Shown: in pieces, positions 21,459-39,586 of the stretch
Layout: each line of letters opens with the position of its first letter
Position numbering within the stretch: the first letter of the stretch is position 1
Source: Corynebacterium minutissimum
GTDB taxonomy: Bacteria; Actinomycetota; Actinomycetes; Mycobacteriales; Mycobacteriaceae
NCBI RefSeq assembly: GCF_016889765.1
Contig: NZ_CP069533.1
Coordinates: 758,504-822,503, forward strand
Direction of reading: 5' to 3'
Length of the DNA: 64,000 nucleotides
Position numbers and translations under genes: made by a program
The notes under the pieces: model-generated
Database searches by the model: none
Told to the model about the DNA's origin: nothing
Seen by the model: only the letters and a program-made list of their open reading frames with translations

Positions 21459-24400
21459 CTACCCCCGCTCGGCGTCGGGTTCGAGTACTCCGTTGCGCAT
21501 TCGCGCGCCTTCACTGAGCAGCACGGCCGCCTCGCGTTCCTTGACCTCCGCGGCGGGTCCGCCGCCCAGGTTGCGATCCACCGGCCTCTGGTAGAGCGCC
21601 GAACCGCCTCGCATGGCGTCCTCGAGGCGGCGCAAGCCAGAGCGCTCTCTCGCCTCGGCTCTCTCGCGCCATGCCAGTGCAGTGTCGTCGCCGCATTCAG
21701 CCACGAGTGCTGACACGAAGGCCTCTGGGTGCACGACCGCAATGAGCGCGGAGACATGGCCGAAGCCCAAGGACGTCACCAGCCCCGCTTTGGGCGGGGT
21801 CCGGCGCAGGTCCAGCGGCTGGCGCAGCCACACCAGGTGTTCGTGCCGGCGCAGCTCAGGATCCACGCAGTCCAACGAGCGGTTCGGCGGGACGATACCT
21901 CCGCGCAGCACCTGGCACAGCCCGATGAGCTGAAAGGCGGCGGCTCCGCCTTTGGCGTGGCCGGTCAGGGTCTTTTGTGAAATAACGTAGAGCGGGTTCC
22001 CGTCGCTGCGCCCGAGGGCACGCGCGATGCGCTCATGTAGGTCGGACTCGTTGGGGTCATTGGCGCTCGTGGAGGTGTCGTGCTTGGACACTACCGCGAT
22101 GTCGTCCGGCGAAACCCCGAGTTCTGTGAGGGAACGCGCCAGGCGAGAGTCGGCTCCCCCGCGCGCCGCAGACAGCGCGCCGAGGCCCGGCGCGGGGATG
22201 GAGGTGTGCGCGCCGTCAGCGAAGGACTCGGCAAAGCCCACCACGCCGAGGACCGGCAGGCCCAGCTCCGCGGCTAGACTTCCACGCGCAAGCAGCAGCG
22301 TGCCGCCACCTTCAGACTCGACAAAGCCGCCGCGGCGGCGGTCGTTGGCCCGGGAGAAGAAGCGGTGCTCGATGCCCTTGGCCTCCATTTCTGAGCTATC
22401 GGCAGTAGCCGCCATGTCGCCGAAGCCTGTAATCCCCTCGACGGAGAGTGCATCAATCCCGCCGGCGACAACGACATCTGCCTTGTGCAGGCGCAGCTTG
22501 TCCACGGCTTCCTCGACGGAGACCGCCGCCGTTGCGCATGCCGCTACTGGATGCACCATCTGGCCGTAGCCGCCGACGTAAGACTGCATCACGTGCGCGG
22601 CAATGACGTTGGGCAGGGCTTCCTGCAGGATGTCGTGCTGTCGGGGGTGGGCGAGGAGCTTGTCGACGTACAAGGAGCGCAACGCCTCCTGCCCCGCCAT
22701 CCCGGTTCCCTGGGTGGAGCTCACCCGCGCCGGGTGGACGTGGGCAAGCAGCTCGGCCGGGCTAAAGCCGGCGGTGAGGAATGCCTCGACGGTGCACACA
22801 AGGTTCCATAGCGCCAGGCGGTCCACGCTATCCAGCATGTCCGCCGGGATGCCGTAGACCGCAGGATCGAAGCCTTCCGGAATCTGGCCGCCGACGAATC
22901 GTGTCATGGCTACGCGCCGCGGCACGCGTACAGCGGATCCGGCAGGGCGGGTCACCTGCCACTCGGCCTCACCGCCAGGGCTCGTGAGCACTCGCCGCAT
23001 CGTGGCACCTTCGCAGCTATCCACGAAGGACCGTGCGGTGGCTTCATCTTCAACGGCGAAGGTAAGCGGTTTCTCCAGGTAAATGGTGGTGAGCTCAGGT
23101 GCGAGGTTATCCACCATGGGCAGGTGCGGGCCAAAGTCATCGTGGAAGCGGCGCACGCCGATTCCGGCGAGAACCTCATCGTGAAAGCGGTCGTAGATGT
23201 CCTCTTCTGCGATTGTTTCACCCTCCGGCGTGGTCCACGCTGCGGTGGCGTCATCCCACGCCACGAGGCCTCGACTCCACGCCAGTTCCAGCACGCCCGC
23301 GGCGGAGAGATCTCCGCCGACTTCCACCTCGAAGCGCGTGCGCGCCGTGCCCAGCGGGCCCAGCTCCCCTGCTCCGACGATGACGACCATGTCCTCCAGG
23401 GACTGGGTAACCCCATCGAAGCTGGGTGTTGTCCAGTCCAGCGGTGCGAGTACGTTCGGCAGAGCCTTGACGGTGCGCGGCGCTGGGCTGGGGGACTTGG
23501 TGGGGGTCGGGGGGACGTCGCCAAGCACGGCGTCGCGAGAGAGCTTAGCCAAGTCTAGGTCGGCCCCAGCCAAACCACCGGTGAAGTCCATGACCACCGG
23601 TCCTTCGGCAGCCTGGATGAGGATGTCCTCGTTCGCGGCGTTATCCACAAGGCACATCGCCATGTCCTTCGCCGAATACGTGCTCACGCCGCGGGCCTCA
23701 ACCTGGTCGACGAGTGGATCGTTGGCCGCCATGAGCCCCGTGCCGCGCACCCAGCCAATGAGTGCGTGGACAAGCGAGGTCCGCGCGCCCCAGGTGTTCT
23801 GCTCGGAGTACCAGCGCTGCACCAGGGCGTCGAACGCCGCCTTGGCCTCGCCATAAGCGCCGTCGCCACCGAAGCGCCCGCGATTGGGCGAGCCTGGAAG
23901 CACCACGTGCAGGCGATGCCCCAGGTGGGTATCCGCGCCCAGCGCGGACAGGCCCGCGATGAGCTTTTCTACTGACCACAGCAGCAGGCGCATCTGGGCT
24001 TCTGATTCAGGACCAGCCTCCGCCACGGTGCCGCTCACGCGCGGGGCAGCAAAGGGGAAGAGCAGGTCGGGAACGAAAGCTGGCTTGCGCAGCGTGGTCT
24101 TTCCTCCCACGGTATCCGCCTGCTCTGAGCCGATCCACTCCACCAGCGCGTCGATGTCGGCGAAGGAGTTGAGGTTGGCCGGGACTACCCACAGCGCCGC
24201 GGTGCCGACGGCACGAGTGCGGTATAACTCCTTGAAAAACTCCAGCCGGTCCGGAGTAAGCTGCGAGGTCGTCGCGATAACCGTGGCGCCTTCGACGAGC
24301 AGCTCGGAGATGATTTCCGCGCCAATCGAACCCGGCGAGCTACCCGTCACCACGGCCACCTGCCCAGAGTGAAGAAGGAATTCACCGGGTACCTCAGCAT

Positions 24401-27400
24401 CCACCGCTTGATGGTGATAGCCCAGGTACTCGGCCATACGCGCAACCTCTGCGCCAGCACCAAGGACATCAAGGGGCGGATCTTCTACGCCCGCCGCCGC
24501 AGCGCGGACAAGGCCCTCGCGGGCATAAGCCCAGCAATCATCAAACAGGACAGCCTTCTTCGCGTCGAAGGCCGGCGCTACGCGCTGCGCCCAGTCCGGG
24601 CCCACTTCCCTGGCCACGAGTTCAGCAAGGTGCTCGTCATGCCCCGCCGCCTCACCGCGCACCGCATCATCACCGTGCTCAGTGCCGTCACGGCCGAGGG
24701 CCTCGAGCAGCGAGCGTGCGGAATCCTCGAGTGCGGATTCGAGTCGTTCCGTGTACGCAGCCAGCGCCGCTGGATCCACAACGGTGTCAGCGCTGGCGTG
24801 CGGCACCCGGGCCACCGTGACGTCGGCGCGGGTCGCGGTGGCTACAAGGGAGGCGTCGATAAGCTCATCCAGCTCCTGTGCGGTGCTGGCAGCGCTGACG
24901 GGTAATGTGGCCAGCTCCCCGCCGCGCAGGGACGCGCCCTCCCGGCTGCCCAGCACAAGCTCCGCCAGGGTGCGGTCGACCCACCCCGGGCCCAGACCCC
25001 ACTCATTGTTCACACGCTCGGCAATGTAACCCGGCTTCTTCCCCGCCGGTCCGGTCACACGACGCACAGCCTGCGCTACCTGCTCGGTAAGCACTGGGCC
25101 AAATGCGTGATAGCCCGGCGCGCGCTGCGCCACGGTCTGCGCCAGCTCGCTCACCGGCATATCCGCTGCACCATCGATGGCGGCGATGCCGAACTCTACG
25201 CCTAGGTCCAACAGCAGCTGGTTGCGGCGGGAGGATACGCCCTCCACCAAACCTTCAATCGTGTCGGTGGCCGCAATCTGATCAGGACGCACCTTCGTCC
25301 ATAGCGCGATAAGCATCTCAACCGCCTGCTGTGAGCTCAGCGGCTGGTCAGTAACCTTTTCGGTCGCGGCAACGGGGGTGGCTGTGTGGGTAGCCGACAG
25401 CTCATCGGCCGCGAGCTGTGGTGTGGGCTGTGACGGCTGAGAGTGCTCATCCGTCGGCACGGTCTCACGCGCCGGTGCCGGCTCTGTGTCCTCGGCGAAG
25501 ACCCGGGCATGGTCGCGCTCGGTGTTGAGGACCTCGACCTGAACGCCGTCGTACTCCGGCAAGCTAAGTGTCTGCCCCATCATGTTGGCCACGGTGGGGG
25601 CGTGCCCCACGCCGATCTCGACGAAGCGCTCTATTCCTAAGCCCGGAAGCCCGGCGGCAGTGTGCGCACCGCGCGGGGTCAGCAACAGGTCCTGCGTTTC
25701 GATCCACCGCACCGGGGAGGCAAACTGCCAGGCCAGCAGCTCCACTAGCAGTGTGCGGCCAAGCTTGTGCGGGTGCGCTGCGGCTGCTGCGAAGTCCTCC
25801 AGAATGGCCGCGATACGCGGCGAATCAACAACGTCTGCGATGGCCTCCACAAAGTCACGGTCCACGGCGAATGGCCGGGCAACGAGGTTGGGGACGTAGC
25901 GCCCCACCAGCACGTCGAGGTCGATATCCTGCGGGATGAGCTCATCTAAGTGCGCACGGAAATCATCTACCCCGTCCACTAAGCGTGAGGAGTGGAAGGG
26001 CACATCAATGCCGGGAATGGGGACAAAAGCGCGCTCGCCGGGCGCCCAGTGCTCGGCGTTTTCCTCGATGGCAATAAGGCCATCCACCGTGCCGGCAATG
26101 GCGTACTGGCGCCCGGCCACGTTGTAGTTGACCACCTCGAGGAACTCCCCGGTGACCTCAATGGTCTCGGCGATGTAGTCCGTGACCTCATCGGCGCGCA
26201 TCCCCATCTTGTGGGGCCTTAGCGCGCCCAGTCCGTAGCGCGAATAGCCCTCGGCATCACGCTCCACGAGCCGGTCCATGGTGAGGCCACGCACATAGAC
26301 GATCTCCAACACGGCCTCGAGCGAAAGCACCTCGGCGTAGGCAGCCAGCGCGTTGTACTCGCCTACGGAATGCCCGCCAAAGGCCGCAGTGCTATCCAGT
26401 ACCCTGGCCTCCTTCAGCGCAGCAATCTGCGCGCAGCCCAGCGTAGCCATGGCTACCTGCGTGAACTGGGTAAGGTACAGGACACCATCGGGATGGGAAT
26501 ACGTCGTGCCGCGCACGACCACGATGTCCGGGTTATTCCGCACAATCTCCAGAATGGAAAAGCCCAGGTGTTGTCTCGTGTGGGCGTCGGCGCGTTCCCA
26601 CACCGCGCGTGCCGCGGGCGAGGTCCCGTACTCCTGCATCCCCATCCCCGGGGCCTGAATGCCCTGGCCGGGAAAAGCATAGAAGGTGCGTGGTGCGCTC
26701 ATCACAGCGCGCGCTTCCAACACCACCACGCCAGCACTCGTCGCGGTGACGGAGCGGACTTCGCCGTGGCCGCCGCGCTTGTCGACGCCCACCCGGTCCA
26801 CCACCAGCTCCACCTCACTGCCCGGGCGTACCGGCGCGAGCATGGTCGCGGACCACTGCAGGACTCGGGCCCCGTCGAAGGCGGCAGCAGTCTGCGCCAG
26901 CACTGACGTCCACATGCCATGCACGATAGGGCCATCCTCGAGCCCCGCCAGTGCTGCGGCGTTCGCAGACACGTGTATGGGGTTATGGTCCCCCGTCACT
27001 ACCGCGAAAGGACGCAGGGATTCCGGCGCCGTAACGGTGCGGCGGTGACGGAAAGACCGCGGGGTCTCTCGAATGAACTCCGAGGAGTCCTCAGCGGAAT
27101 CATCCGTGGCCGGCGCAACGCGAGTGCCGACGCGGCCAGGGATGAGGAAACGTTCGCGCAGCCGGGCGAGGTTGCCGTCGTGATCGATGCGTACCGCAAT
27201 CTCCACCACGCGGCCCGAGGCTGTATCCCACACGCCGCGCAGTCGGGCGGTGGCCTGCACCTGTAGGGGATCTGCGCCCGGCTCCGCCGCAGCAGCGAGA
27301 AGCCCTGCAGCCCCTTCGGTCAGTTCCACCGAGTGTGCAAGGTGCACAAGGTTGAGCAGGCCCTCAACCACGGGCTCCCCCACCACGACGTGCTCTCCGG

Positions 27401-30400
27401 CCGTGCGGGCCACTGAAATGACGGCAAAAATGGCCGGCCACGCGGTACCTACTAACACGTCGGGCACGACTGGGCCATCGGCGCTACCGGCACTGGTCAC
27501 AGAAACATAGTTCGCCATGTCCGCCGCATCGAGGGTGGCCGTAACCGTGGCGCTACCGCCATCTACCTCCGGCAGTGTTCCCCCAGCAGCCACTCGGGCT
27601 AGCTCCCGCATGGCGGAAGCAGCATCCTCTGCGCTGACGACGGGCGAAGCACCCGGCACACGCGGTGCAGCGATGCGCACGCGCAGCGTGGAGTCAGCAT
27701 TCGCAGCACTGCGGGCGCCGACACCAAGAGGAACGGTGAACCAGAAGTCCGCGGGGTCTGTGCTCACCGGTTCGAGGGTCGCGCCGGGCAGGTTGAGGCG
27801 TAGCGGGTTCGCCTGCTCGCGGCCAGCCCAGTTGAGGCACGGCGCCCGGCGAAGGAGTTCCTCAGCGGTGGGCGCGGGGGCATCCAGGTGTGGAGTGGGG
27901 GCTGCTGAAAGCAGGTCGATAGTGGCCTGCTCGAAGCGCTTCAGCAACTGCGCAACCGGTTCGTTGGCGTATTCAATGCCCTCGACGCCCGCTGTACCTG
28001 GGATGATGCAGACACTGTCGGCATCGAAGTGCTCGTCGTGGGCCTGCCACAAGGAATCCTGGCGGAAGCGGCGGCGCACGGCAGCATCGATAATCGGCAC
28101 AAACCCCGGTGGCTTACCGGGGCCGTCAAGGAGGGACACGAACCACGCAGCATCCGTCGGGTGAAGGGCAGCGTCACCGTAAAGCTCAACAAGCTCATCA
28201 ATTGCGGCCGCAGGGTCGGCGGCATCGACTGTGACCTGCAGGGCTATCTCACCGTGGTCAACGTCGTGCAGTCGGGCTTCGGCGCGCGCCACTATCTTCT
28301 CGAAGCGAGTACACCACGATTCATCTGTCCAGCCGTCGTGGAAGGATAACTCCACATAACGTCGCAGCCACTCGGCGTAGCTCATGGCGTCAAGGTCCCC
28401 AAAGTAGGGTTTGCACGTCTGCGCTAGGGCAGCAGCGATCTCCTCGCGGTGAGCGGACACCAGCTCCTCATCACCCGCAACCGCATCGAGCAGACGCCCG
28501 GCGTGGGCGAAGGAATTATCCAGCTCGTGGATGCTGGCGCCGAGGTCGGAACGGCCCGAAGTGACATCGTCTTCCGTGGCAGCAACGAGTGCCTGCTTCA
28601 CCGACGCCGACGCCGTGGACTCGGCAGTGGCCATCGCGGCAGTGCCGATCATGATGGCGTCGACAGGTGCTGCGGGCAGGCCACGACGCCGCGACCACTC
28701 GCCGGTGAGGTACTCCGCGCCCTGAGTCGGGGTGGCGATGCCGCCGCCAACGGCAAGCAGAACGTTGGGGTGCCGACGGATATCGTCATAGGTGGCGGCA
28801 AGGAGCTCGTCGAGGTCCTCAGCGGAGTGGTGGCCGCCGGCTTTGCCACCTTCTACCTGCATTATGAGCGTGGTAGACACGGCACGGGCGATGGCCAGCA
28901 CCTGCTTGATTTGTTCCACCGTGCCGGGTTTGAAAGCTACCCACGGGATGTTCTCTGCGTGGAGGCGCCGTACCAGGTCACATGCTTCCTCGTGCGGCGG
29001 GATTCCGGCGGAGATGACTACGCCGTTGAGCGGTGCCCCCGCTGCACGCGATCGTGGGATGGCACGCTGGCCTTCAATCTGGCGCCGCCACTGCGAAGCA
29101 GATAAGTACAGAGCATTGAACTGGGCATTAACCCCCGGCGCGAGGAGACGCGCGAGTCTCTCCAGGTTCTGGTCCAGAATGTCCTCGGTATGTTGGCCGC
29201 CGCCAGCGAGCTCCGCCCAGTGCCCAGCATTGGCAGCCGCGGCAACGATTTCCGGATCCACTGTGGTTGGTGTCATGCCAGGCAGCATGACCGGGGAATA
29301 GCCGGTCACTTCAGTAAAACGCGAAGAGAGGCGTCCGCCGACGAGGCGCGGCGCGAAATCAGACCAGGCTGCCGGCACGGCAGAGGCACGGCCGGGCGCG
29401 AAGAGCTGCGCTTGGCCCTCAGCAGTACCCACGGCTAGGGTTCCCACGCCACGTCCGGCCACCGCCTCTCGGGTTAGCGGCTCAACACCGCGGGAGGGGC
29501 CTATCTCCAGAATCCAGCGCGCGCCGGCGGCAACCGCCTCGTCAACGCGGGCAGGCCAGTCAACGGTATCTGTCAGCACTGCGCGGGCAAGCTCGCCGGC
29601 AAGGACTAAATCGAGTTCGAGGTCGGCGGCCCAGCGCTCCACCTGTTCCACAGCTGGAGCTAGGGCCGGATGGTGGAAGGCGGCATCAACATCAAGGTCC
29701 GTGAAGGTCACCTGTTCGCCTGCCATGGTGCGACGCACGCGGGCAAGCTCCTCCGGGGTGCCCACGATGACGCTGCGTTCGCGGCCATTGATGAGACCGA
29801 TATGGGCACCTAACTCGTGGAGTTGTTCCTGCGTAGCTCCGTCAACCGCCACCATGGGCGCTCCCTGGGCGGTGCGCACAAACCCGTGGATGCGGGCAGT
29901 CGTCGTCAACGCAGCACCAATGAGCCGGGCTATGGCCAGGGCCTCGCCTGGGGTCGCGCGACCAGTCGTCACAGCGGCGGCAAGAACGCCTTGGGAATGA
30001 CCAAGACTCAACACGGCATTAGATATATCTAGGCCCTGTGCCCGCACAGACTCCATGACCGCAAGCTGAGCGCACAAGATACCCGGAGTGGACACAGCAG
30101 GGGCGGATAGCGCGAACCCAGGCTCGGACTCCGCCCACGTTAGTGGTGCGAAGCCGTGCGGGGAGGCGGGAAGGAGGGCGTCGCTGAGCGGAGCGAGTAT
30201 CTCTTCCGCGTCGGCGAGGTACGCGGCAATCTGCGGCCGCACCCCCGCAGCGAGTGCCTCCCGGAGGGTAGGCAACCAGGTATAACCTTGGCCGGAAAAG
30301 GACAGCGCATAAGGCGCCGCGCTTACTCCCGGCGCAGCAATGTTAGGGATATCCACGCGCGCTATTCCCCCAAGACACGCGCTACGCGTTGAACTGCTTC

Positions 30401-30440
30401 GTCGAGGGAGGGCTGCGTTTGGGGCTTGGGCAGGCCGCAA
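21459..30440 (-). CDS. fas: Type I fatty acid synthase (FAS-I), actinobacterial multidomain enzyme
   Basis: A 2993-aa ORF. The N-terminus aligns to M. tuberculosis Fas (YALSFSGQGYTW vs YAVAFGGQGSAW). Domains are acyltransferase (GHSQG), enoyl reductase, dehydratase, MPT, ACP, KR and C-terminal KS (active-site ATACSS-like). Confidence 0.9.
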   Translation of the reverse strand: MRPAQAPNAALPRRSSSTRSACLGGIARVDIPNIAAPGVSAAPYALSFSGQGYTWLPTLREALAAGVRPQIAAYLADAEEILAPLSDALLPASPHGFAPLTWAESEPGFALSAPAVSTPGILCAQLAVMESVRAQGLDISNAVLSLGHSQGVLAAAVTTGRATPGEALAIARLIGAALTTTARIHGFVRTAQGAPMVAVDGATQEQLHELGAHIGLINGRERSVIVGTPEELARVRRTMAGEQVTFTDLDVDAAFHHPALAPAVEQVERWAADLELDLVLAGELARAVLTDTVDWPARVDEAVAAGARWILEIGPSRGVEPLTREAVAGRGVGTLAVGTAEGQAQLFAPGRASAVPAAWSDFAPRLVGGRLSSRFTEVTGYSPVMLPGMTPTTVDPEIVAAAANAGHWAELAGGGQHTEDILDQNLERLARLLAPGVNAQFNALYLSASQWRRQIEGQRAIPRSRAAGAPLNGVVISAGIPPHEEACDLVRRLHAENIPWVAFKPGTVEQIKQVLAIARAVSTTLIMQVEGGKAGGHHSAEDLDELLAATYDDIRRHPNVLLAVGGGIATPTQGAEYLTGEWSRRRGLPAAPVDAIMIGTAAMATAESTASASVKQALVAATEDDVTSGRSDLGASIHELDNSFAHAGRLLDAVAGDEELVSAHREEIAAALAQTCKPYFGDLDAMSYAEWLRRYVELSFHDGWTDESWCTRFEKIVARAEARLHDVDHGEIALQVTVDAADPAAAIDELVELYGDAALHPTDAAWFVSLLDGPGKPPGFVPIIDAAVRRRFRQDSLWQAHDEHFDADSVCIIPGTAGVEGIEYANEPVAQLLKRFEQATIDLLSAAPTPHLDAPAPTAEELLRRAPCLNWAGREQANPLRLNLPGATLEPVSTDPADFWFTVPLGVGARSAANADSTLRVRIAAPRVPGASPVVSAEDAASAMRELARVAAGGTLPEVDGGSATVTATLDAADMANYVSVTSAGSADGPVVPDVLVGTAWPAIFAVISVARTAGEHVVVGEPVVEGLLNLVHLAHSVELTEGAAGLLAAAAEPGADPLQVQATARLRGVWDTASGRVVEIAVRIDHDGNLARLRERFLIPGRVGTRVAPATDDSAEDSSEFIRETPRSFRHRRTVTAPESLRPFAVVTGDHNPIHVSANAAALAGLEDGPIVHGMWTSVLAQTAAAFDGARVLQWSATMLAPVRPGSEVELVVDRVGVDKRGGHGEVRSVTATSAGVVVLEARAVMSAPRTFYAFPGQGIQAPGMGMQEYGTSPAARAVWERADAHTRQHLGFSILEIVRNNPDIVVVRGTTYSHPDGVLYLTQFTQVAMATLGCAQIAALKEARVLDSTAAFGGHSVGEYNALAAYAEVLSLEAVLEIVYVRGLTMDRLVERDAEGYSRYGLGALRPHKMGMRADEVTDYIAETIEVTGEFLEVVNYNVAGRQYAIAGTVDGLIAIEENAEHWAPGERAFVPIPGIDVPFHSSRLVDGVDDFRAHLDELIPQDIDLDVLVGRYVPNLVARPFAVDRDFVEAIADVVDSPRIAAILEDFAAAAAHPHKLGRTLLVELLAWQFASPVRWIETQDLLLTPRGAHTAAGLPGLGIERFVEIGVGHAPTVANMMGQTLSLPEYDGVQVEVLNTERDHARVFAEDTEPAPARETVPTDEHSQPSQPTPQLAADELSATHTATPVAATEKVTDQPLSSQQAVEMLIALWTKVRPDQIAATDTIEGLVEGVSSRRNQLLLDLGVEFGIAAIDGAADMPVSELAQTVAQRAPGYHAFGPVLTEQVAQAVRRVTGPAGKKPGYIAERVNNEWGLGPGWVDRTLAELVLGSREGASLRGGELATLPVSAASTAQELDELIDASLVATATRADVTVARVPHASADTVVDPAALAAYTERLESALEDSARSLLEALGRDGTEHGDDAVRGEAAGHDEHLAELVAREVGPDWAQRVAPAFDAKKAVLFDDCWAYAREGLVRAAAAGVEDPPLDVLGAGAEVARMAEYLGYHHQAVDAEVPGEFLLHSGQVAVVTGSSPGSIGAEIISELLVEGATVIATTSQLTPDRLEFFKELYRTRAVGTAALWVVPANLNSFADIDALVEWIGSEQADTVGGKTTLRKPAFVPDLLFPFAAPRVSGTVAEAGPESEAQMRLLLWSVEKLIAGLSALGADTHLGHRLHVVLPGSPNRGRFGGDGAYGEAKAAFDALVQRWYSEQNTWGARTSLVHALIGWVRGTGLMAANDPLVDQVEARGVSTYSAKDMAMCLVDNAANEDILIQAAEGPVVMDFTGGLAGADLDLAKLSRDAVLGDVPPTPTKSPSPAPRTVKALPNVLAPLDWTTPSFDGVTQSLEDMVVIVGAGELGPLGTARTRFEVEVGGDLSAAGVLELAWSRGLVAWDDATAAWTTPEGETIAEEDIYDRFHDEVLAGIGVRRFHDDFGPHLPMVDNLAPELTTIYLEKPLTFAVEDEATARSFVDSCEGATMRRVLTSPGGEAEWQVTRPAGSAVRVPRRVAMTRFVGGQIPEGFDPAVYGIPADMLDSVDRLALWNLVCTVEAFLTAGFSPAELLAHVHPARVSSTQGTGMAGQEALRSLYVDKLLAHPRQHDILQEALPNVIAAHVMQSYVGGYGQMVHPVAACATAAVSVEEAVDKLRLHKADVVVAGGIDALSVEGITGFGDMAATADSSEMEAKGIEHRFFSRANDRRRGGFVESEGGGTLLLARGSLAAELGLPVLGVVGFAESFADGAHTSIPAPGLGALSAARGGADSRLARSLTELGVSPDDIAVVSKHDTSTSANDPNESDLHERIARALGRSDGNPLYVISQKTLTGHAKGGAAAFQLIGLCQVLRGGIVPPNRSLDCVDPELRRHEHLVWLRQPLDLRRTPPKAGLVTSLGFGHVSALIAVVHPEAFVSALVAECGDDTALAWRERAEARERSGLRRLEDAMRGGSALYQRPVDRNLGGGPAAEVKEREAAVLLSEGARMRNGVLEPDAERG

Positions 30441-32765: not shown

Positions 32766-34016
32766 TTAATGCTCGTCGGCCAACCGGAAGAGCTCGCCCA
32801 GAATCCCCGAACCGTCCTCAGCAATCCCATTGTGCTGGAAGCGATTCGTCACCATCGGGCGCAGGTCACGGTAGGTCTCCCCCGTAGCCATTGAATCCTC
32901 GAAGGGGACGAAGATGTCGTCCAGGTAGATGGCGGCAGCGGCTACCAGGGGGCCGTCGGCAAGCACTGCGTCATCGTACGGCGAGCTGGTCCACTCATGC
33001 GCAGCCAGCTCCTCCGCGCCTTCTTTGAAAGGGCGTAACGCCGGGTCCTCGTCGAATTGCCAGGGGAAGATGTGTTCGCCGGTAAGGTACGTGCCGTCCT
33101 CGGCAAACTCGGGAAACTCCTCGCGCATGCGGTGCGCCGCCCAGCCGGTGACGGCCTGGCCGCCGACGCCACCGTAGATGGATTCATGGATCGCCGCGTA
33201 CAGCGGCCCGGCCTGGAAGCTCACGCGGCTGCCGACGTTGTTGAGGAAGTCTGAACGCAAGCGCTTCTCCCCGCCCACGGTGCGGAACGGTTCCTCCAGC
33301 AGGTAGGCCAGAGAATCGAAGCCAGTGCCGCGCCCCAATTCAATACCGATGGTGCGGAAGCGGCGCGCAGACAGGCGCTCACCCGTGGGCAGGAGTTCTT
33401 CCGAGTTGTCCAGGTGGTGGATAATCTCTTCGATGCGTTTTTGAGCCCACGGAAATTGGTTGTAAAAGCGCTCGTGACGGACCTTGAGCTTGGCAAAGGT
33501 CGTGCGGTAGAGATCGTCCGCGCCCTTGGTCAGGGTAGGAAGGCCACCAGTAAGGAAGGCCCGGCCGATAGACTCCGTGAACATCGAAGCATAGGCCGTA
33601 ATGATGAAGCCGCCGAAGGACTGGCCGAAGAGATCCCAGGACTCCTCCCCCAGGTGCTCACGTAGGCGTTCGGCATCACGCACGATGTTGTCCTGGCGCA
33701 ACTGCGCCAAGCGCTGCGCGGTGCGGTCCTCGGCAGGGCTCAGTTCATCAATGCGGTGGCTGCGCCCAGTGCCGCGCTGGTCCATGAGGATCCAACGGTA
33801 GCGCTCCAGGCCCTTCCCGATGAGCCCGGTGGCGCCAACCGGCCGCGGAGACGGGAAACCCGGCCCGCCCTGGTTATAGAGCAGTGCCGGGTAGTTCTCA
33901 CCGCCCGGTGGGATGATCTCGCGCGCGTAGAGTTCGAAAGAACCGGCGGCGGGATTGTCATAATCCCAGGGGACGGTAAGGATGTGTTCCTTGATGGTGT
34001 GGCCGAAGCGTTTCAT
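32766..34016 (-). CDS. Alpha/beta hydrolase, S33 proline-iminopeptidase-like
   Basis: LYNQGGPGFPS, and the nucleophile elbow GQSFGG. Start set at the ATG at 34016, immediately after the pflA stop. An upstream alternative exists. Confidence 0.6.
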   Translation of the reverse strand: MKRFGHTIKEHILTVPWDYDNPAAGSFELYAREIIPPGGENYPALLYNQGGPGFPSPRPVGATGLIGKGLERYRWILMDQRGTGRSHRIDELSPAEDRTAQRLAQLRQDNIVRDAERLREHLGEESWDLFGQSFGGFIITAYASMFTESIGRAFLTGGLPTLTKGADDLYRTTFAKLKVRHERFYNQFPWAQKRIEEIIHHLDNSEELLPTGERLSARRFRTIGIELGRGTGFDSLAYLLEEPFRTVGGEKRLRSDFLNNVGSRVSFQAGPLYAAIHESIYGGVGGQAVTGWAAHRMREEFPEFAEDGTYLTGEHIFPWQFDEDPALRPFKEGAEELAAHEWTSSPYDDAVLADGPLVAAAAIYLDDIFVPFEDSMATGETYRDLRPMVTNRFQHNGIAEDGSGILGELFRLADEH

Positions 34017-34020
34017 GCTT

Positions 34021-34890
34021 CTAGTAGACCACGAAACCCTCCTTACGGAACGCATCTCGGACAGATTCAACGTCTTCCGGTTTAGGCGGCTTGGTGTCCT
34101 CCAAAGTGTAGGGCATGTTGAGCTCACGCCACTTATCTGCGCCCATGTTGTGGAAAGGCAGCACCTCGACTCGCTCGACGTTGCTCTTCCAGCGGGAGGC
34201 AATCTTGACCACGTTGGCGACATTCTCCGGGGAATCCGTCAGGCCAGGGACGAGCACGAAACGAATCCACACCGGCTTGCCCATCTCATTGAGACGGTCA
34301 CCGAAGTCGATGGTGGGTTGCAGCTCGCGGCGCGTGACTTCCTTGTAAGTCTCCTCGTCACCAGCCTTGACGTCCAAGAGAACGAGGTCAATGTTGTCCA
34401 AGTCCTCGTCGCGCAGGCGCGCGCCCAAGTATCCCGACGTGTCAATCGTCGTATGGATACCCGCGTCGTGGACCTCCTTGAGCAAGCGCCGGGCAAACGC
34501 AATCTGGAACAGCGCTTCGCCGCCAGACATAGTCAGACCACCTCCGGAGGAGTTGAAGACAGGCTTATAGCGCTTGATGCGCTTCACCACGTCTTCAATG
34601 CGCTCCAGAGTGCCGACCTTCATTTCCATCGTGTCAGGGTTGTGGCAGTACTGGCAGCGCAGCGGGCATCCCGACATGAACAAAGTCATGCGGGTTCCAG
34701 GGCCATCAACGGCGGTCACCAGCTCCCAAGAGTGAACGAGGGCAATGTCGCCAGAACGGCGTGCCTGCATCAACTCCGGGCGGCTGAACTCGTCGAGGTC
34801 ATTATCTGTGCCCAAACCGGCGGCGGCGCCGCGCACCTTGTCACCCTCTTCAGGGGACAGGTGGACGACGCCGGTAATGCCATCTGCCAT
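34021..34890 (-). CDS. pflA: Pyruvate formate-lyase activating enzyme (glycyl-radical activase, radical SAM)
   Basis: CPLRCQYCHNPDT is the CxxxCxxC radical-SAM motif found near the N-terminus of glycyl-radical activases. Confidence 0.85.
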   Translation of the reverse strand: MADGITGVVHLSPEEGDKVRGAAAGLGTDNDLDEFSRPELMQARRSGDIALVHSWELVTAVDGPGTRMTLFMSGCPLRCQYCHNPDTMEMKVGTLERIEDVVKRIKRYKPVFNSSGGGLTMSGGEALFQIAFARRLLKEVHDAGIHTTIDTSGYLGARLRDEDLDNIDLVLLDVKAGDEETYKEVTRRELQPTIDFGDRLNEMGKPVWIRFVLVPGLTDSPENVANVVKIASRWKSNVERVEVLPFHNMGADKWRELNMPYTLEDTKPPKPEDVESVRDAFRKEGFVVY

Positions 34891-35142
34891 CTAGGAGCCC
34901 TGGTGGAAGGTACGGGAGATGACGTCGAGCTGCTGCTCGCGGGTCAGCTTGACGAAGTTCACTGCGTAGCCAGACACGCGGACAGTGAGGTTCGGGTACT
35001 TCTCCGGGTGCTCAACAGCGTCCTCCAGGGTGGACTTGTCCAGGACGTTGATGTTGGCGTGGTACAGGCCCGAGTCCATGTTGTTGGCGGTGCGGTTTGC
35101 CTTCATGGTTGCGAGACGCTCGTCGAAAGTTGGGGTAGCCAT
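34891..35142 (-). CDS. Stand-alone glycyl-radical domain protein (GrcA/YfiD-like). Appears to be the detached C-terminal domain of PflB.
   Basis: [28 protein letters not shown] is the PFL glycine-radical signature RVSGY. Start at ATG 35142 with an AAAGGAG ribosome-binding site 8 nt upstream. 83 aa. Confidence 0.7.
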
Positions 35143-35179
35143 GATGTTTTCTCCTTTTCGGAAGTGGTGTGAAAGTGGT

Positions 35180-37273
35180 TTACTTGGAATCCATGATGAA
35201 GCCGGCGTCGAGGACACCCACCAGGTTGGTGATGCGTTCCTCAGGCGTGCGGCCCAAACCGGACGGGGTGATGGTGTTCGTCAGCGAGATGCCGTCGAGC
35301 GCATCCTTGTAGTCCAGCTTGCCCACCGACAGCATGGAAGCGACCATGCCGTGGTTGTCTGCGCCGTTCTCCGGGTTTGCGCCCGGGGCGAACGGAGTAC
35401 CTGCCTCGTGGCCAGACGGGAAGGAACCAGTAGCCTTGCCGTAGACCACGTTGGAGGTAATGGTCAGCACAGACTGGGTCGGGATGGCGTTGCGGTACAT
35501 CGGGATGGCCTTAATCTTCGCCATCACGGTGTGGACGATGGTGGCGGCGATGTCATCGGCGCGGTCATCATCGTTGCCATAGAACGGGAAGTCACCTTCC
35601 GTCTTGTAGTCCACGATGAGACCAGTCTCATCGCGCACCGGGTAGACCTTGGCGTACTTGATGGCGGAGAGGGAGTCAGCCACGATGGACAGACCCGCGA
35701 TACCGCAGCCCATGGAGCGCACAATGTCGGAATCGTGCAGTGCCATCTCGATGGACTCGTAGGCGTACTTGTCGTGGCAGTAGTGGATGATGTTGAGGGC
35801 CTCAACGTAGGTGCCCACAACCCAGTCCAGCATCTCCTCGTACTTCTGCCAGACCTCGTCGAAGTCCAGCGGGCCATCGCCCTGGATAGCCTCGTAGCCG
35901 TCCACGACTTGCTTTCCGCTGACCTCGTCGCGGCCTCCGTTGATGGCGTAGAGCAGGGCCTTAGCGGCGTTCACGCGGGCGCCGAAGAACTGCATCTGCT
36001 TGCCGACGGCCATCGGGGACACGCAGCAGGCAATCGCGGCGTCATCGCCCCACTGTTCACGAATCTGCTTATCGGACTCGTACTGGATGGACGAGGTCTC
36101 AATCGAGATGTGGGCACAGAATTCCTTGTAGCCCTCCGGCAGCTGCGGATCCCAGAAAATGGTGATGTTCGGCTCCGGTGACGGGCCAAGGTTGACCAGG
36201 GTCTGCAGCAAACGGAAGGAGGTCTTGGTGACTAGGTGGCGGCCGTCAGAACCGAAACCAGCATCGGTCCAGGTTGCCCAGTAGGGGTCACCGGAGAAGA
36301 TCTGGTCGTAATCCTCGGTACGCAGGAAGCGCACGATACGCAGCTTGAGGACCAGCTGGTCGATGATCTCCTGAGCGTCTTCCTCAGTGATGATGCCAGC
36401 GGCAAGGTCGCGCTCGAAGTAGCAATCGAAGAAGGCGGAGAGGCGGCCGATGGACATGGCGGCGCCGTCCTGGGACTTAATGGAAGCCAAGTAGCCAAAG
36501 TAGGTCCACTGAACAGCTTCGTGAGCGGTCTTAGCCGGCTTGGAGATGTCAAAGCCGTAGGACTCAGCCATGACCTTAAGCTTCTTCAGAGCCTTGATCT
36601 GCTCGGCGTGCTCCTCACGGTAGCGAGCCCAGTGCTCGGAGAATCCGACATCGCCCACTGCATGCTTGGACGCTTCCTTCTCAGCGATGAGGTAGTCCAC
36701 ACCGTAGAGAGCCACACGGCGGTAGTCGCCAATGATGCGGCCACGGCCATAAGCATCCGGCAGACCGGTAATGATGTGGGAAGAACGAGCAGCGCGGATG
36801 CGCGGGGTGTAGATATCGAAGACGGCATCATTGTGCGTCTTGCGGTAGCGGGTGAAGATCTTCTCCACCTCGGGGTCGGTTTCCTTACCGGCCTCCTTGA
36901 TAGCCTGCTTGACCATGCGCCAGCCACCATTCGGCATCATGGCGCGCTTCAGCGGGGTATCCGTTTGCAGGCCAACAATGACGTCGTCCTCTTCGCAAAT
37001 GTAGCCAGCCGGGAAAGCGTCAATATCAGTTGGGGTGTGGGTGTCGACATCGAAGATGCGCTTCTTGCGCTCGATGGACAGGTAGTTTTCTTCCAGGTGC
37101 TCCCAGACGCGCTTGGTCTTTTCGGTCGGGCCCTCCAAGAAGGAAGCATCTCCGTCATAGGGGGTGTAGTTGCGCTGGATGAAATCGCGGACGTCGATGT
37201 TCTCGGTCCACGGGCCTTCTTCAAAGCCCTTCCATCCCTCAAACTGGACGGATTGCTCAGTTGCGGTGGTCAC
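35180..37273 (-). CDS. pflB: Formate C-acetyltransferase (pyruvate formate-lyase) catalytic protein, lacking the C-terminal glycyl-radical domain
   Basis: Collinear with E. coli PflB throughout, including the Cys-Cys active site AIACCVSPM. Ends at ...[15 protein letters not shown], just before the glycyl-radical domain. GTG start with a GAAGGGAG ribosome-binding site. Confidence 0.8.
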
Positions 37274-37322: not shown

Positions 37323-37663
37323 GAAGGGTTTTGGTGACTCCAGTTCACGGGCAATTCGGTCATCACGGTTGTCACCGAACCCCTCTCTGCAGCCCATAGT
37401 AAGGGCAAAGCCGTTTTAACTCATATCGTGCGTTTTATGAGGTAAATCACTAAAAACACCGCACAGTGGCCACCCCGCAGGTCGCCGGATCCATAGGTAA
37501 CGACCGTACTGTTGACTCGCGGGGGTGGACCACCCCCTAAAGTGGCATTCACCACAGTTTTTCGCGTTCATTGGGCGAGCTGAATCCGCTTCTTGGTGTG
37601 TATCCACACCGCGCTCTATTGTTATGCGCAGTATCCTCGTCTCGCCCTCAAGGAGCTCTTCGC

Positions 37664-39586
37664 GTGTCTGACACCGCCGCTACTGCTAGCCCCGCCACTG
37701 CCCCAACTCACCCCGTGGACGTTGTCCCGCCAGCGCCCAAGCTGGCGGCTCTCGGCCTCCAGCACGTTCTCGCGTTCTACGCCGGCGCAGTGATCGTTCC
37801 GCTACTCATCGCTGGTTCCCTGGGCCTCGATGAGGCCACCACAATCCACCTCATCAACGCCGACCTGTTGACCTGTGGTCTGGCAACGTTGATCCAAGCG
37901 GTGGGCGTCGGCAAGCACATTGGCGTCCGTCTCCCCATCATCCAGGGCGTGACCACCACAGCGGTGAGCCCCATCATTGCCATTGGTATGAGCGCAGGTG
38001 ACCAGCCGCTACCCACAATCTATGGCGCGATTATTGCCGCCGGTATCTTTACGTTCTTCGCCGCGCCGGTTTTTGGACGCGTGCTCAAATACTTCCCACC
38101 CATCGTGACCGGCACCGTGCTTCTGGTCATGGGTACCTCACTGCTCGCGGTGTCCGCCAATGACTTCGTGAACTACGCCGACGCCGCCCCCGCCTCGCGC
38201 GACCTTCTCTATGGTTTCGGCACGCTCACCATCATTATCATCGTGCAGCGTTTCTTCCGCGGCTTCCTGGGCACACTCTCTGTACTCCTCGGCCTCGTCA
38301 TCGGCACTGGCGTGGCCTTGGCACTAGGTGATACGTCCTTTGACGGCGTGCGCGAGGCCGACGCCATCGGTATAACCACGCCTTTCTACTTCGGTATGCC
38401 GAAGTTCGACATCATGGCGATTCTTTCCCTCATCATCGTCATGATCATCACCATGGTGGAAACTACCGGCGATGTCTTTGCTACCGGTGAGATTGTCAAG
38501 AAGCGCATCAAGCGCGATGACGTCGTGCGCGCCATTCGCGCCGATGGTCTCTCAACCACCCTTGGTGGCGTGATGAACTCCTTCCCCTACACCTGCTTCG
38601 CGCAGAATGTCGGTCTCGTACGTCTTACTGGTGTGAAGTCCCGCTGGGTAGCCGTGTCCGCCGCCGGCTTCATGATTATTCTGGGCCTGCTGCCCAAGGC
38701 TGCCGCCATCGTCGCCGCCATCCCCTCCCCGGTCCTCGGCGGCGCCTCCTTGGCGCTCTTTGCCAACGTCGCTTGGGCCGGCCTGCAGACCATTGCCAAG
38801 GAAGATATCACCGACGGCCGCAACGCCGCCATTGTCACCACCGCACTGGGACTGGCCATGCTCGTCACCTTCAAGCCGGACGTGGCAGCGGCCTTCCCAG
38901 AATGGGCACAGATCTTCGTCTCCTCCGGTATGTCCATCGGTGCGATTACCGCCATCCTGCTCAACCTGCTGTTCTTCCACGTCGGTACGCAATCCGGTGA
39001 CGATATCAGCCGCATCGACGGCGAAGGGGTGTCTCTCACCGAGCTCAACGCCATGGAGCGCGAGGAATTTGTCAGCGCGCTGCGCCCGCTCTTCAACAAC
39101 GAAACGTGGCCTCTGGAGGCAGCTTGGGAGTCCCGTCCCTTCGACGACGTCAGCCGCCTGCGTGAGGCCATCCAGGTCGCCGTGCTGACCGCCCCGCGTG
39201 AGCAGCGCCGTGCGCTCATCCACGATTACCCGGCCATGGATGAGCTGCTGCTTGCCGACGCTACCGAGGCCGCCACCATCTCCGCCGACCGCGGGTCGCT
39301 TGCCCTCGATGACTTGGATGATGTCCAAACACAGCAGCTTATCGACGTCTCCCGGGCCTACCGCGAGCGATTCGACATGCCCTTCGTGGCTTACCTAGAC
39401 ACCAACGATTCTGCCGACCGCGTCATCGACGGAGGCGTGCGCCGCCTCGCCAACTCCGACGAGCTGGAGCAGCGCGTCATCTTGAGCGAAATCATCGAGA
39501 TTGCCAACGACCGCTTCGACATCCTGCTCGCCGATGCCAACCCGGTGCGCGCTTACTGGGACCGCAAGTTCACCGAGGTGGAGTGA
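37664..39586 (+). CDS. NCS2-family nucleobase (xanthine/uric acid-type) permease fused to a C-terminal OHCU-decarboxylase-like (UraD-like) domain
   Basis: The N-terminal ~460 aa form a polytopic NCS2 permease. The C-terminal ~180 aa (LNAMEREEFVSALRPLFNNETW...RPF...LIHDYPAMD...RFDMPFVAYL) resembles the OHCU decarboxylase family. GTG start at 37664 with an AAGGAG ribosome-binding site. Confidence 0.65.
   Translation: MSDTAATASPATAPTHPVDVVPPAPKLAALGLQHVLAFYAGAVIVPLLIAGSLGLDEATTIHLINADLLTCGLATLIQAVGVGKHIGVRLPIIQGVTTTAVSPIIAIGMSAGDQPLPTIYGAIIAAGIFTFFAAPVFGRVLKYFPPIVTGTVLLVMGTSLLAVSANDFVNYADAAPASRDLLYGFGTLTIIIIVQRFFRGFLGTLSVLLGLVIGTGVALALGDTSFDGVREADAIGITTPFYFGMPKFDIMAILSLIIVMIITMVETTGDVFATGEIVKKRIKRDDVVRAIRADGLSTTLGGVMNSFPYTCFAQNVGLVRLTGVKSRWVAVSAAGFMIILGLLPKAAAIVAAIPSPVLGGASLALFANVAWAGLQTIAKEDITDGRNAAIVTTALGLAMLVTFKPDVAAAFPEWAQIFVSSGMSIGAITAILLNLLFFHVGTQSGDDISRIDGEGVSLTELNAMEREEFVSALRPLFNNETWPLEAAWESRPFDDVSRLREAIQVAVLTAPREQRRALIHDYPAMDELLLADATEAATISADRGSLALDDLDDVQTQQLIDVSRAYRERFDMPFVAYLDTNDSADRVIDGGVRRLANSDELEQRVILSEIIEIANDRFDILLADANPVRAYWDRKFTEVE

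Follow-up and report, generated by a model that had tools for sequence, protein, structure and literature searches.

In Escherichia coli, the pyruvate formate-lyase (PFL) gene pflB is intact, and a back-up protein, GrcA (YfiD), is encoded elsewhere and used after damage. GrcA, like Y06I of phage T4, is a small separate protein with a copy of the PFL radical domain (beta strand, glycine loop and C-terminal helix); once activated by the PFL activase, it serves in the active site of a PFL that has no usable radical domain. An engineered two-piece enzyme, E. coli tPFL(1-695):truncYfiD(61-127), has also been described (Andorfer et al. 2021, PMC8683613); its core, truncated at residue 695, is correctly folded. 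The apparent kcat of this pair is 204/s per radical, compared with 105/s for the wild type; its activation is low (2.7 vs 15.9 µM radical), and binding was not detected by isothermal titration calorimetry (PMC8683613). Work from the Drennan laboratory indicates that removal of residues 696-733 unexpectedly harms both binding and activation. In a 2026 review of glycyl radical enzymes, the role of the YfiD N-terminus is called enigmatic, and formate lyases appear with spare-part proteins only, with no natural split. Here we describe a 64,000-nucleotide (nt) stretch of Corynebacterium minutissimum DNA (contig NZ_CP069533.1; hereafter the window, in whose positions all its coordinates are given). 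In contrast to E. coli, a PflB without the radical domain (PflB-deltaC) is encoded there next to a small glycyl-radical protein, GrcA2, and the gene of the activase, pflA, follows. This two-gene layout is real, conserved and widespread in Actinomycetota. Sequence comparisons make it probable that the operon encodes a functional two-piece PFL whose radical subunit can be replaced, and that pflB-deltaC, grcA2 and pflA are transcribed together in this order.

The pflB-grcA2-pflA locus of the window

Direct reading of the open reading frames (ORFs) gave three contiguous genes, all on the minus strand, in the order pflB, grcA2 and pflA (Table 1). The original prediction, made from the letters of the window, had named the same order, which was also read in all 80 loci described below. 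It had further held that PflB is collinear with E. coli PflB past the Cys-Cys active site and ends before the radical domain, and that this domain lies on a separate ORF of 83 amino acids (aa) in another frame. Both points were borne out. PflB-deltaC aligns to E. coli PflB residues 10-693, its end corresponding to about residue 698, and the frame of grcA2 differs from that of pflB (offset 2131 nt, remainder 1). Only the distance between the two ORFs, given earlier as 35 nt, had to be corrected to 37 nt. Residues 25-81 of GrcA2 align to E. coli PflB 701-757 and to GrcA 69-125, the core of the small protein starting at about E. coli PflB residue 701. By these alignments, the break point is placed just before the barrel strand beta10, and PflB-deltaC is left without beta10, the glycine loop and the C-terminal helix. 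From its N-terminal extension onwards, GrcA2 runs through the beta10 strand (GLYHANINV), a helix and the glycine loop (RVSG58YAV) to a C-terminal helix.

Profile searches divide in the same way. PflB matches the Pfam PFL-like profile PF02901 with 677.6 bits over residues 24-612, and the Pfam Gly_radical profile is shared between the two proteins, PflB covering positions 1-65 of 106 and the 83-aa ORF positions 63-106. The PFL barrel domain with its adjacent cysteines (C418/C419 in E. coli) is present in PflB as AIAC416C417VSPM, while the glycyl-radical motif RVxG[FWY], expected on the same polypeptide, is found as RVSGYAV on the separate ORF. Because its C-terminus is missing, PflB falls just short of the PFL equivalog TIGR01255 (994.1 bits against a cut-off of 994.2; profile positions 2-679 of 744), and some RefSeq copies are therefore named only "pyruvate formate lyase family protein". 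GrcA2 exceeds the cut-off of the NCBIfam equivalog NF008341 (167.6 against 145 bits; residues 5-82 on profile positions 2-79 of 80) and stays below that of the GrcA/YfiD family TIGR04365 (spare_glycyl; 86 against 170 bits), the latter match being limited to residues 22-81 (profile positions 65-124). The identical 83-aa protein is named "autonomous glycyl radical cofactor GrcA2" in RefSeq. PflA scores 304.4 bits against TIGR02493 (PFLA; cut-off 231.75) and carries the radical S-adenosylmethionine (SAM) cluster motif CxxxCxxC as CPLRCQYC at residues 75-82.

The TAG stop codon of grcA2 is immediately followed by the ATG of pflA, and this TAG-ATG junction suggests translational coupling of the two genes. 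A terminator scan found no terminator-like site inside the operon on this strand, and the spacer between pflB and grcA2 gave no match to Rfam and no structured-RNA signal; as a whole, the promoter, terminator and Rfam scans of the operon yielded nothing informative. There is no second PFL ORF within the 64-kb window. In the eukprot collection of eukaryote transcriptomes, ORF 'p2' of one Trinity transcript has a sequence identical to GrcA2 (P0510). This copy is presumably a bacterial contaminant, and it offers incidental evidence that grcA2 is transcribed on a multi-ORF RNA.

Conservation and origin of the split

A scan for relatives with one genome per species returned at least 80 loci; counts out of 80 refer to the loci listed. 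These belong to Corynebacterium, Actinomyces, Schaalia, Pauljensenia, Varibaculum, Winkia, Arcanobacterium, Trueperella, Actinotignum, Actinobaculum, Rothia, Brachybacterium, Dermabacter, Helcobacillus and Ornithinimicrobium, and the higher groups covered include Actinomycetaceae and Dermabacteraceae. Gulosibacter appears among the database relatives of the 83-aa ORF. An alignment to actinobacterial homologs, proposed in advance as a check on the split and on the N-terminal extension, confirmed both: the split is present in 80/80 loci, and the extension is conserved as a motif. The arrangement pflB-grcA2-pflA is invariant, pflA following grcA2 in every locus. PflB always ends 0-12 residues past the motif LDAGF, GrcA2 is always 82-84 aa long (83 aa in 77 loci), and both ACCVS and RVSGYAV are found in 80/80. 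PflB-deltaC is 79-99% identical across orders. The best 120 PflB relatives listed are all 697-703 aa in length, and the best 120 relatives of the small ORF listed are all 82-105 aa, mostly 83. The window PflB is 100% identical to C. minutissimum WP_115023368.1, and the identical 83-aa protein is found on 297 contigs. For each species, only the adjacent truncated pflB was returned by the scan.

This distribution bears directly on whether an ordinary pflB has been broken by a sequencing or assembly indel, or by a recent inactivating mutation, with the 83-aa ORF as its out-of-frame remainder. In the window no stop interrupts the frame of grcA2 over at least 25 codons ahead of its ATG (a 108-aa ORF starting with GTG), so that one indel could in principle join the ORFs. 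The earlier statement that no single frameshift restores a continuous PflB thus holds only in part: the open frame permits one long ORF, but its product would exceed intact PFLs by an insertion of more than 30 residues, and in many relatives in-frame stops 0-5 codons upstream of the ATG block such a fusion. Identical proteins recur in hundreds of independent contigs, which argues that the split is not an assembly accident. The split is found in 80/80 species from at least 15 genera, in which pflB and grcA2 are separated by 5 to 194 nt and the relative frame is 0, 1 or 2 in 36, 20 and 24 loci, respectively; such varying spacers and frames cannot be explained by a shared indel or recoding event. 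In addition, both parts are under purifying selection, and compared with intact relatives the split form has a conserved inserted extension, a ribosome-binding site and a start codon. No close relative carries an intact gene in the same flanks, in agreement with the earlier view that the split looks genuine. The comparative data have in practice already refuted an artefact or pseudogene, to which we give next to no credence.

Alternatively, the two ORFs might yield a single chain, whether through programmed frameshifting, readthrough of a stop codon or protein splicing. In favour of this, only a short spacer separates the two genes, which share a strand, and in the window the frame of grcA2 reaches into the end of pflB. 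Against this, the spacers vary as given above and place grcA2 in any of the three frames; in many loci a stop in its frame stands 0-5 codons ahead of the ATG, and nearly all loci have an AAGGAG-like site and an ATG of their own. Projected first codons of grcA2 are ATG in 74 loci; of the others, five have their true ATG one codon further on and one uses GTG. An AAGGAG-like site usually precedes the start. In the window, the ribosome-binding site and ATG that had been claimed for the small ORF were re-examined and are present. Neither an Rfam or structured-RNA signal nor an intein-like sequence was found, and the small ORF holds just the radical domain plus 24 residues. Joining at expression is accordingly very improbable. 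As judged from the sequences, the conservation pattern excludes sequencing error, recent pseudogene formation and fusion by frameshifting or readthrough.

Several side observations were made on these loci. The PflB-deltaC tails after LDAGF often contain one or two cysteines (within L020-L079; for example L023, L024, L029, L060, L050, L058 and L079), as in IPQGCGC, NEPGTCCGR, DDPPCCGVSQ, VPDDSCCVDATKGY, DDSCPA, TSCPNG and PDGDC; the tail of the window PflB, IMDSK, has none. Two loci with the actinobacterial split operon bear other labels, "Staphylococcus chromogenes strain M79.2" (L028, a 535-kb contig; PflB identity 85%) and a "Clostridia bacterium" metagenome-assembled genome (L007; 91%). Mislabelling or contamination is likely in both cases.

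The nearest intact PFLs (the P0254 group, P0404, P0405 and loci L081 and L085) have the sequence from GRTxxER[IV]xNLVGILDAG[FM] through RVSGYAV in one chain, with pflA directly downstream. Members of the P0254 and P0404 groups, L081 and L085 are 74-79% identical to the split form over the common region and share its Cys-Cys site. In these alignments the split form looks like an insertion between LDAGF and GLYH of an intact PFL, the insertion bringing first a variable short tail and its stop codon, then a spacer that contains a ribosome-binding site, and finally an ATG with about 23 codons. A neighbour-joining tree of the shared region from 167 sequences was reconstructed. The split sequences, 101 in number, group in one clade, which is nested within actinobacterial PFLs of the intact type, with the P0404 and P0254 groups as nearest neighbours; the intact P0405 sits within the split clade on very short internal branches, in a tree that is not strongly resolved. 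As the split sequences are essentially one clade, a single origin is likely and would be the simplest reading.

The intact relatives recur in the protein database as 333-aa ORFs that begin right past the Cys-Cys site. In two metagenome-assembled genomes (L081, 3734-6002; L085, 2733-5002) the gene is broken by a frameshift into 412+333 and 436+333 aa, and short contigs begin exactly at the ATG of the 333-aa ORF. Selenocysteine or a second type of split was considered for these ORFs and rejected, because L081 and L085 represent ordinary frameshifted or fragmented gene calls. The 333-aa ORFs are probably an artefact of assembly or gene calling at a highly conserved stretch, and pseudogenisation of the intact relatives is a possible alternative. 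P0408, a PFL with a tandem duplication of the helix before beta10, was considered as an intermediate between intact and split forms; it has several other internal duplications and was therefore judged an assembly artefact.

Table 1. Features of the split PFL operon, in positions of the 64,000-nt window
Feature	Position	Strand	Basis or remark
pflB-deltaC, PFL catalytic subunit, 697 aa, GTG start	35180..37273	-	read from sequence
Codons of the adjacent catalytic Cys416-Cys417 (AIACCVSPM)	36020..36025	-	
pflB/grcA2 intergenic spacer, 37 nt	35143..35179	-	read from sequence
Ribosome-binding site AAAGGAG in the spacer	35151-35157	-	8 nt before the grcA2 ATG
grcA2, glycyl-radical subunit, 83 aa, ATG start, TAG stop	34891..35142	-	
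grcA2 codons 1-24, N-terminal extension	35071..35142	-	per-position conservation, pN/pS
grcA2 Gly58 codon, predicted radical site (E. coli PflB Gly734)	34969..34971	-	alignment
pflA, radical-SAM PFL activase, 289 aa	34021..34890	-	

A putative two-piece enzyme and the GrcA2 extension

In a functional two-piece PFL of this kind, PflB-deltaC would be the catalytic barrel with Cys416/Cys417, ending exactly where beta10 would start, and GrcA2 would supply beta10, the glycine loop and the C-terminal helix in trans. GrcA2 may dock by strand complementation, donating beta10, after which PflA would place the radical on Gly58. The radical would then move to the cysteines of PflB-deltaC, and catalysis via Cys417/Cys416 would proceed as in an ordinary PFL, converting pyruvate and coenzyme A to acetyl-coenzyme A and formate. 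Cleavage by O2 at the radical glycine would cost only the 83-residue subunit, which could be replaced without displacing a covalently attached stump.

GrcA2 could also be a mere spare part, used by an intact PFL or some other glycyl radical enzyme whose gene lies elsewhere, the adjacent PflB being inactive, decaying or otherwise employed. Its place within the autonomous glycyl radical cofactor group fits such a role, as do a GrcA-like protein with a similar N-terminal motif that stands alone in a T4-like phage context (L088) and one divergent 83-aa relative without a preceding pflB on its short contig (L086). However, the high identity of PflB-deltaC across orders and the intact Cys-Cys site in 80/80 loci are not a pattern of decay, the pflB-grcA2-pflA linkage is invariant, and the truncation point is where a GrcA-type domain completes the barrel. 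A redundant second PFL is also less to be expected in small genomes (about 2.4-2.8 Mb). We therefore consider a spare-part role unlikely, and a functional two-piece enzyme remains the preferred reading.

The original prediction had noted some 23 extra N-terminal residues in the small protein with no counterpart in E. coli, and indeed no statistically supported match of the extension to E. coli PflB or GrcA was found. Across genera the extension contains the motif T5-F/Y6-D/E7-E8-R9-L10-x-x-M13-K14-A-x-R17 (TFDERLxxMKAxR), in which T5, F/Y6, E8, R9, M13, K14 and R17 are 70-99% conserved; residues 18-24 form a variable linker. The ratio of nonsynonymous to synonymous polymorphism (pN/pS) reaches 0.52 in residues 2-24, compared with 0.175 in the core, rough values with synonymous sites near saturation, which point to purifying selection on GrcA2. 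The hydrophobic positions 6, 10 and 13 are compatible with one face of an amphipathic helix, and AlphaFold2 (AF2) places a helix at residues 7-19 with low confidence. By analogy with YfiD, whose N-terminus is important for binding and activation, this motif is the best candidate for a handle and most likely serves as a tether or activation handle. It may thereby compensate the weak binding and poor activation that are seen in the artificially cut E. coli PFL.

As to its source, the extension resembles the PFL helix before beta10 (TxDER[IV]xNL vs TFDERLxxM; column-permutation p = 0.012), and phmmer and MAFFT extend their alignments through this region. In contrast, hhalign of the extension against this helix gave nothing, and with a stand-alone hidden Markov model of residues 1-24 PFLs scored no better than reversed decoys. 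The extension might, at most, be a diverged duplicate of the helix. A 100-aa GrcA-like protein, P0246 (L088, 4001-4303; also L089 and L090), lies among T4-like phage genes (HNH, Phage_T4_Y00F and DHFR), and its N-terminal motif KTPTFEERRQSM resembles the GrcA2 motif TFDERLxxMK.

A fused PflB+GrcA2 chain was modelled with AF2. From the single sequence the predicted local distance difference test (pLDDT) was 35.9, with no usable model; with a 148-row alignment, it rose to 71.8, with a predicted template modelling score (pTM) of 0.73. In the latter model the barrel is confident from about residue 150, the helix before beta10 (677-692) has a pLDDT above 80 and the GrcA2 core 66-84. Its template modelling (TM) score against E. 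coli PFL (2PFL) is 0.77-0.79 over 781 columns. As MAFFT set the helix of the homologues against the GrcA2 N-terminus, the junction region of the model is not to be over-read. The best sequence matches of PflB among solved structures are PDB 38la_A (687 aa) and 38lb_A (739 aa), each named "Formate acetyltransferase". A 94-residue query from an intact C-terminus, with the radical domain included, matched neither of them, and both, released after April 2026, are absent from the Foldseek copy of the PDB. These chains could be truncated constructs, or already such a split enzyme.

Some points weigh against a functional two-piece PFL. The extension (698-720) has a pLDDT of only about 45 in the fused-chain model, and since the chain was fused and intact PFLs were in the alignment, the model speaks for compatibility only and not for binding in trans. 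Since activation of the engineered E. coli pair is poor, efficient function here hangs on the adaptations proposed above. In addition, no published report of activity of a PflB-deltaC:GrcA2 pair was found for any organism. The saving when only the small subunit is lost to oxygen is a likely advantage for aerobic or facultative actinobacteria associated with skin, oral and urogenital sites, one that we infer purely by reasoning. That the enzyme is obligately two-piece, as the original prediction had put it, is likewise inferred. In our assessment the balance tips only slightly towards an obligate heteromer (PflB-deltaC:GrcA2)2, in which the radical domain would be a consumable, exchangeable subunit translated from its own unit, and the N-terminal helix a new docking or activation element that corrects the weak binding and poor activation of artificially split E. 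coli PFL.

Genomic surroundings and comparison with known systems

Downstream of pflA, on the same strand, an alpha/beta-hydrolase gene (S33 aminopeptidase-like; 32766-34016) begins 4 nt past the pflA stop, and with this strand and spacing it may be co-transcribed with the PFL operon. A longer call of 485 aa, which runs into pflA, has probably been extended too far. Upstream of pflB and divergent from it lies a 671-aa ORF (37571-39586, plus strand) with a xanthine/uracil permease domain (residues 57-437) fused to an OHCU decarboxylase domain (residues 493-649); in this single ORF a transporter would be joined to an enzyme of urate degradation. Farther away, a single 2993-aa ORF occupies 21459-30440 on the minus strand; as expected of a Corynebacterium, it probably encodes a type I fatty-acid synthase.

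Compared with single-chain PFLs (TIGR01255), the split form has the same Cys-Cys site, the same downstream pflA and the same sequence on either side of the break, but the radical motif is in-chain in the former. Searches of the literature on GrcA2, on split or truncated PFL and on PFL of Corynebacterium and Actinomyces found no description of a split two-subunit architecture, and no published statement that the partner PflB of GrcA2 lacks the radical domain. The architecture thus appears to be annotated by name (GrcA2) and undescribed in the literature. The description of it as unusual therefore stands for published work only; among Actinomycetota it is widespread, and the small protein already has a name in RefSeq (NF008341).

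With its score 0.1 bit under the PFL cut-off, the truncated PflB is often called only a "family protein", so that metabolic reconstructions may overlook formate production in Corynebacterium, Actinomyces, Rothia and Varibaculum from skin, oral and urogenital sites. In one genome paper of Varibaculum cambriense no pyruvate formate-lyase was found (PMC4177395), whereas the locus of the type strain DSM 15806 (L026) carries the split pflB-grcA2-pflA operon. Annotation pipelines may miss a PflB that is split or truncated.

The 83-aa ORF is a full-length member of NF008341 (GrcA2), beside which a GrcA3 family (NF038360) exists; the designation "autonomous cofactor" was given by homology. Unlike that of E. 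coli GrcA, its gene lies between pflB and pflA. The proteins differ as well: E. coli GrcA has 127 aa with a disordered N-terminus of 60 residues, whereas GrcA2 has 83 aa with an N-terminus of 24 residues that bears its own motif.

A radical enzyme encoded by two adjacent genes has a parallel in the ribonucleotide reductase of Aeromonas phage Aeh1, where NrdA is reportedly split by a homing-endonuclease gene into adjacent genes whose products reassemble into an active enzyme. The Aeh1 enzyme belongs to another family, and its split is said to be due to a mobile endonuclease; no mobile element was seen at the pflB/grcA2 break.

If the radical subunit is truly replaceable, the operon would represent a design for glycyl radical enzymes that are cheaper to run at oxic/anoxic interfaces, and if the obligate heteromer is true, a natural design for oxygen-tolerant turnover of such an enzyme. 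The short GrcA2 motif can be mutated and tested directly, and the pair would provide a natural test case for a detachable radical domain. For the question of how a protein of the GrcA/YfiD type binds to a PFL core and is activated on it, the clade described here would be a natural, selected version of tPFL:truncYfiD. The engineered pair, in its working the closest of the known systems, is cut at almost the same place as the break between PflB and GrcA2 in the window; the natural pair differs from it in that selection has maintained it in at least 80 species and in carrying an extra conserved N-terminal motif on GrcA2.

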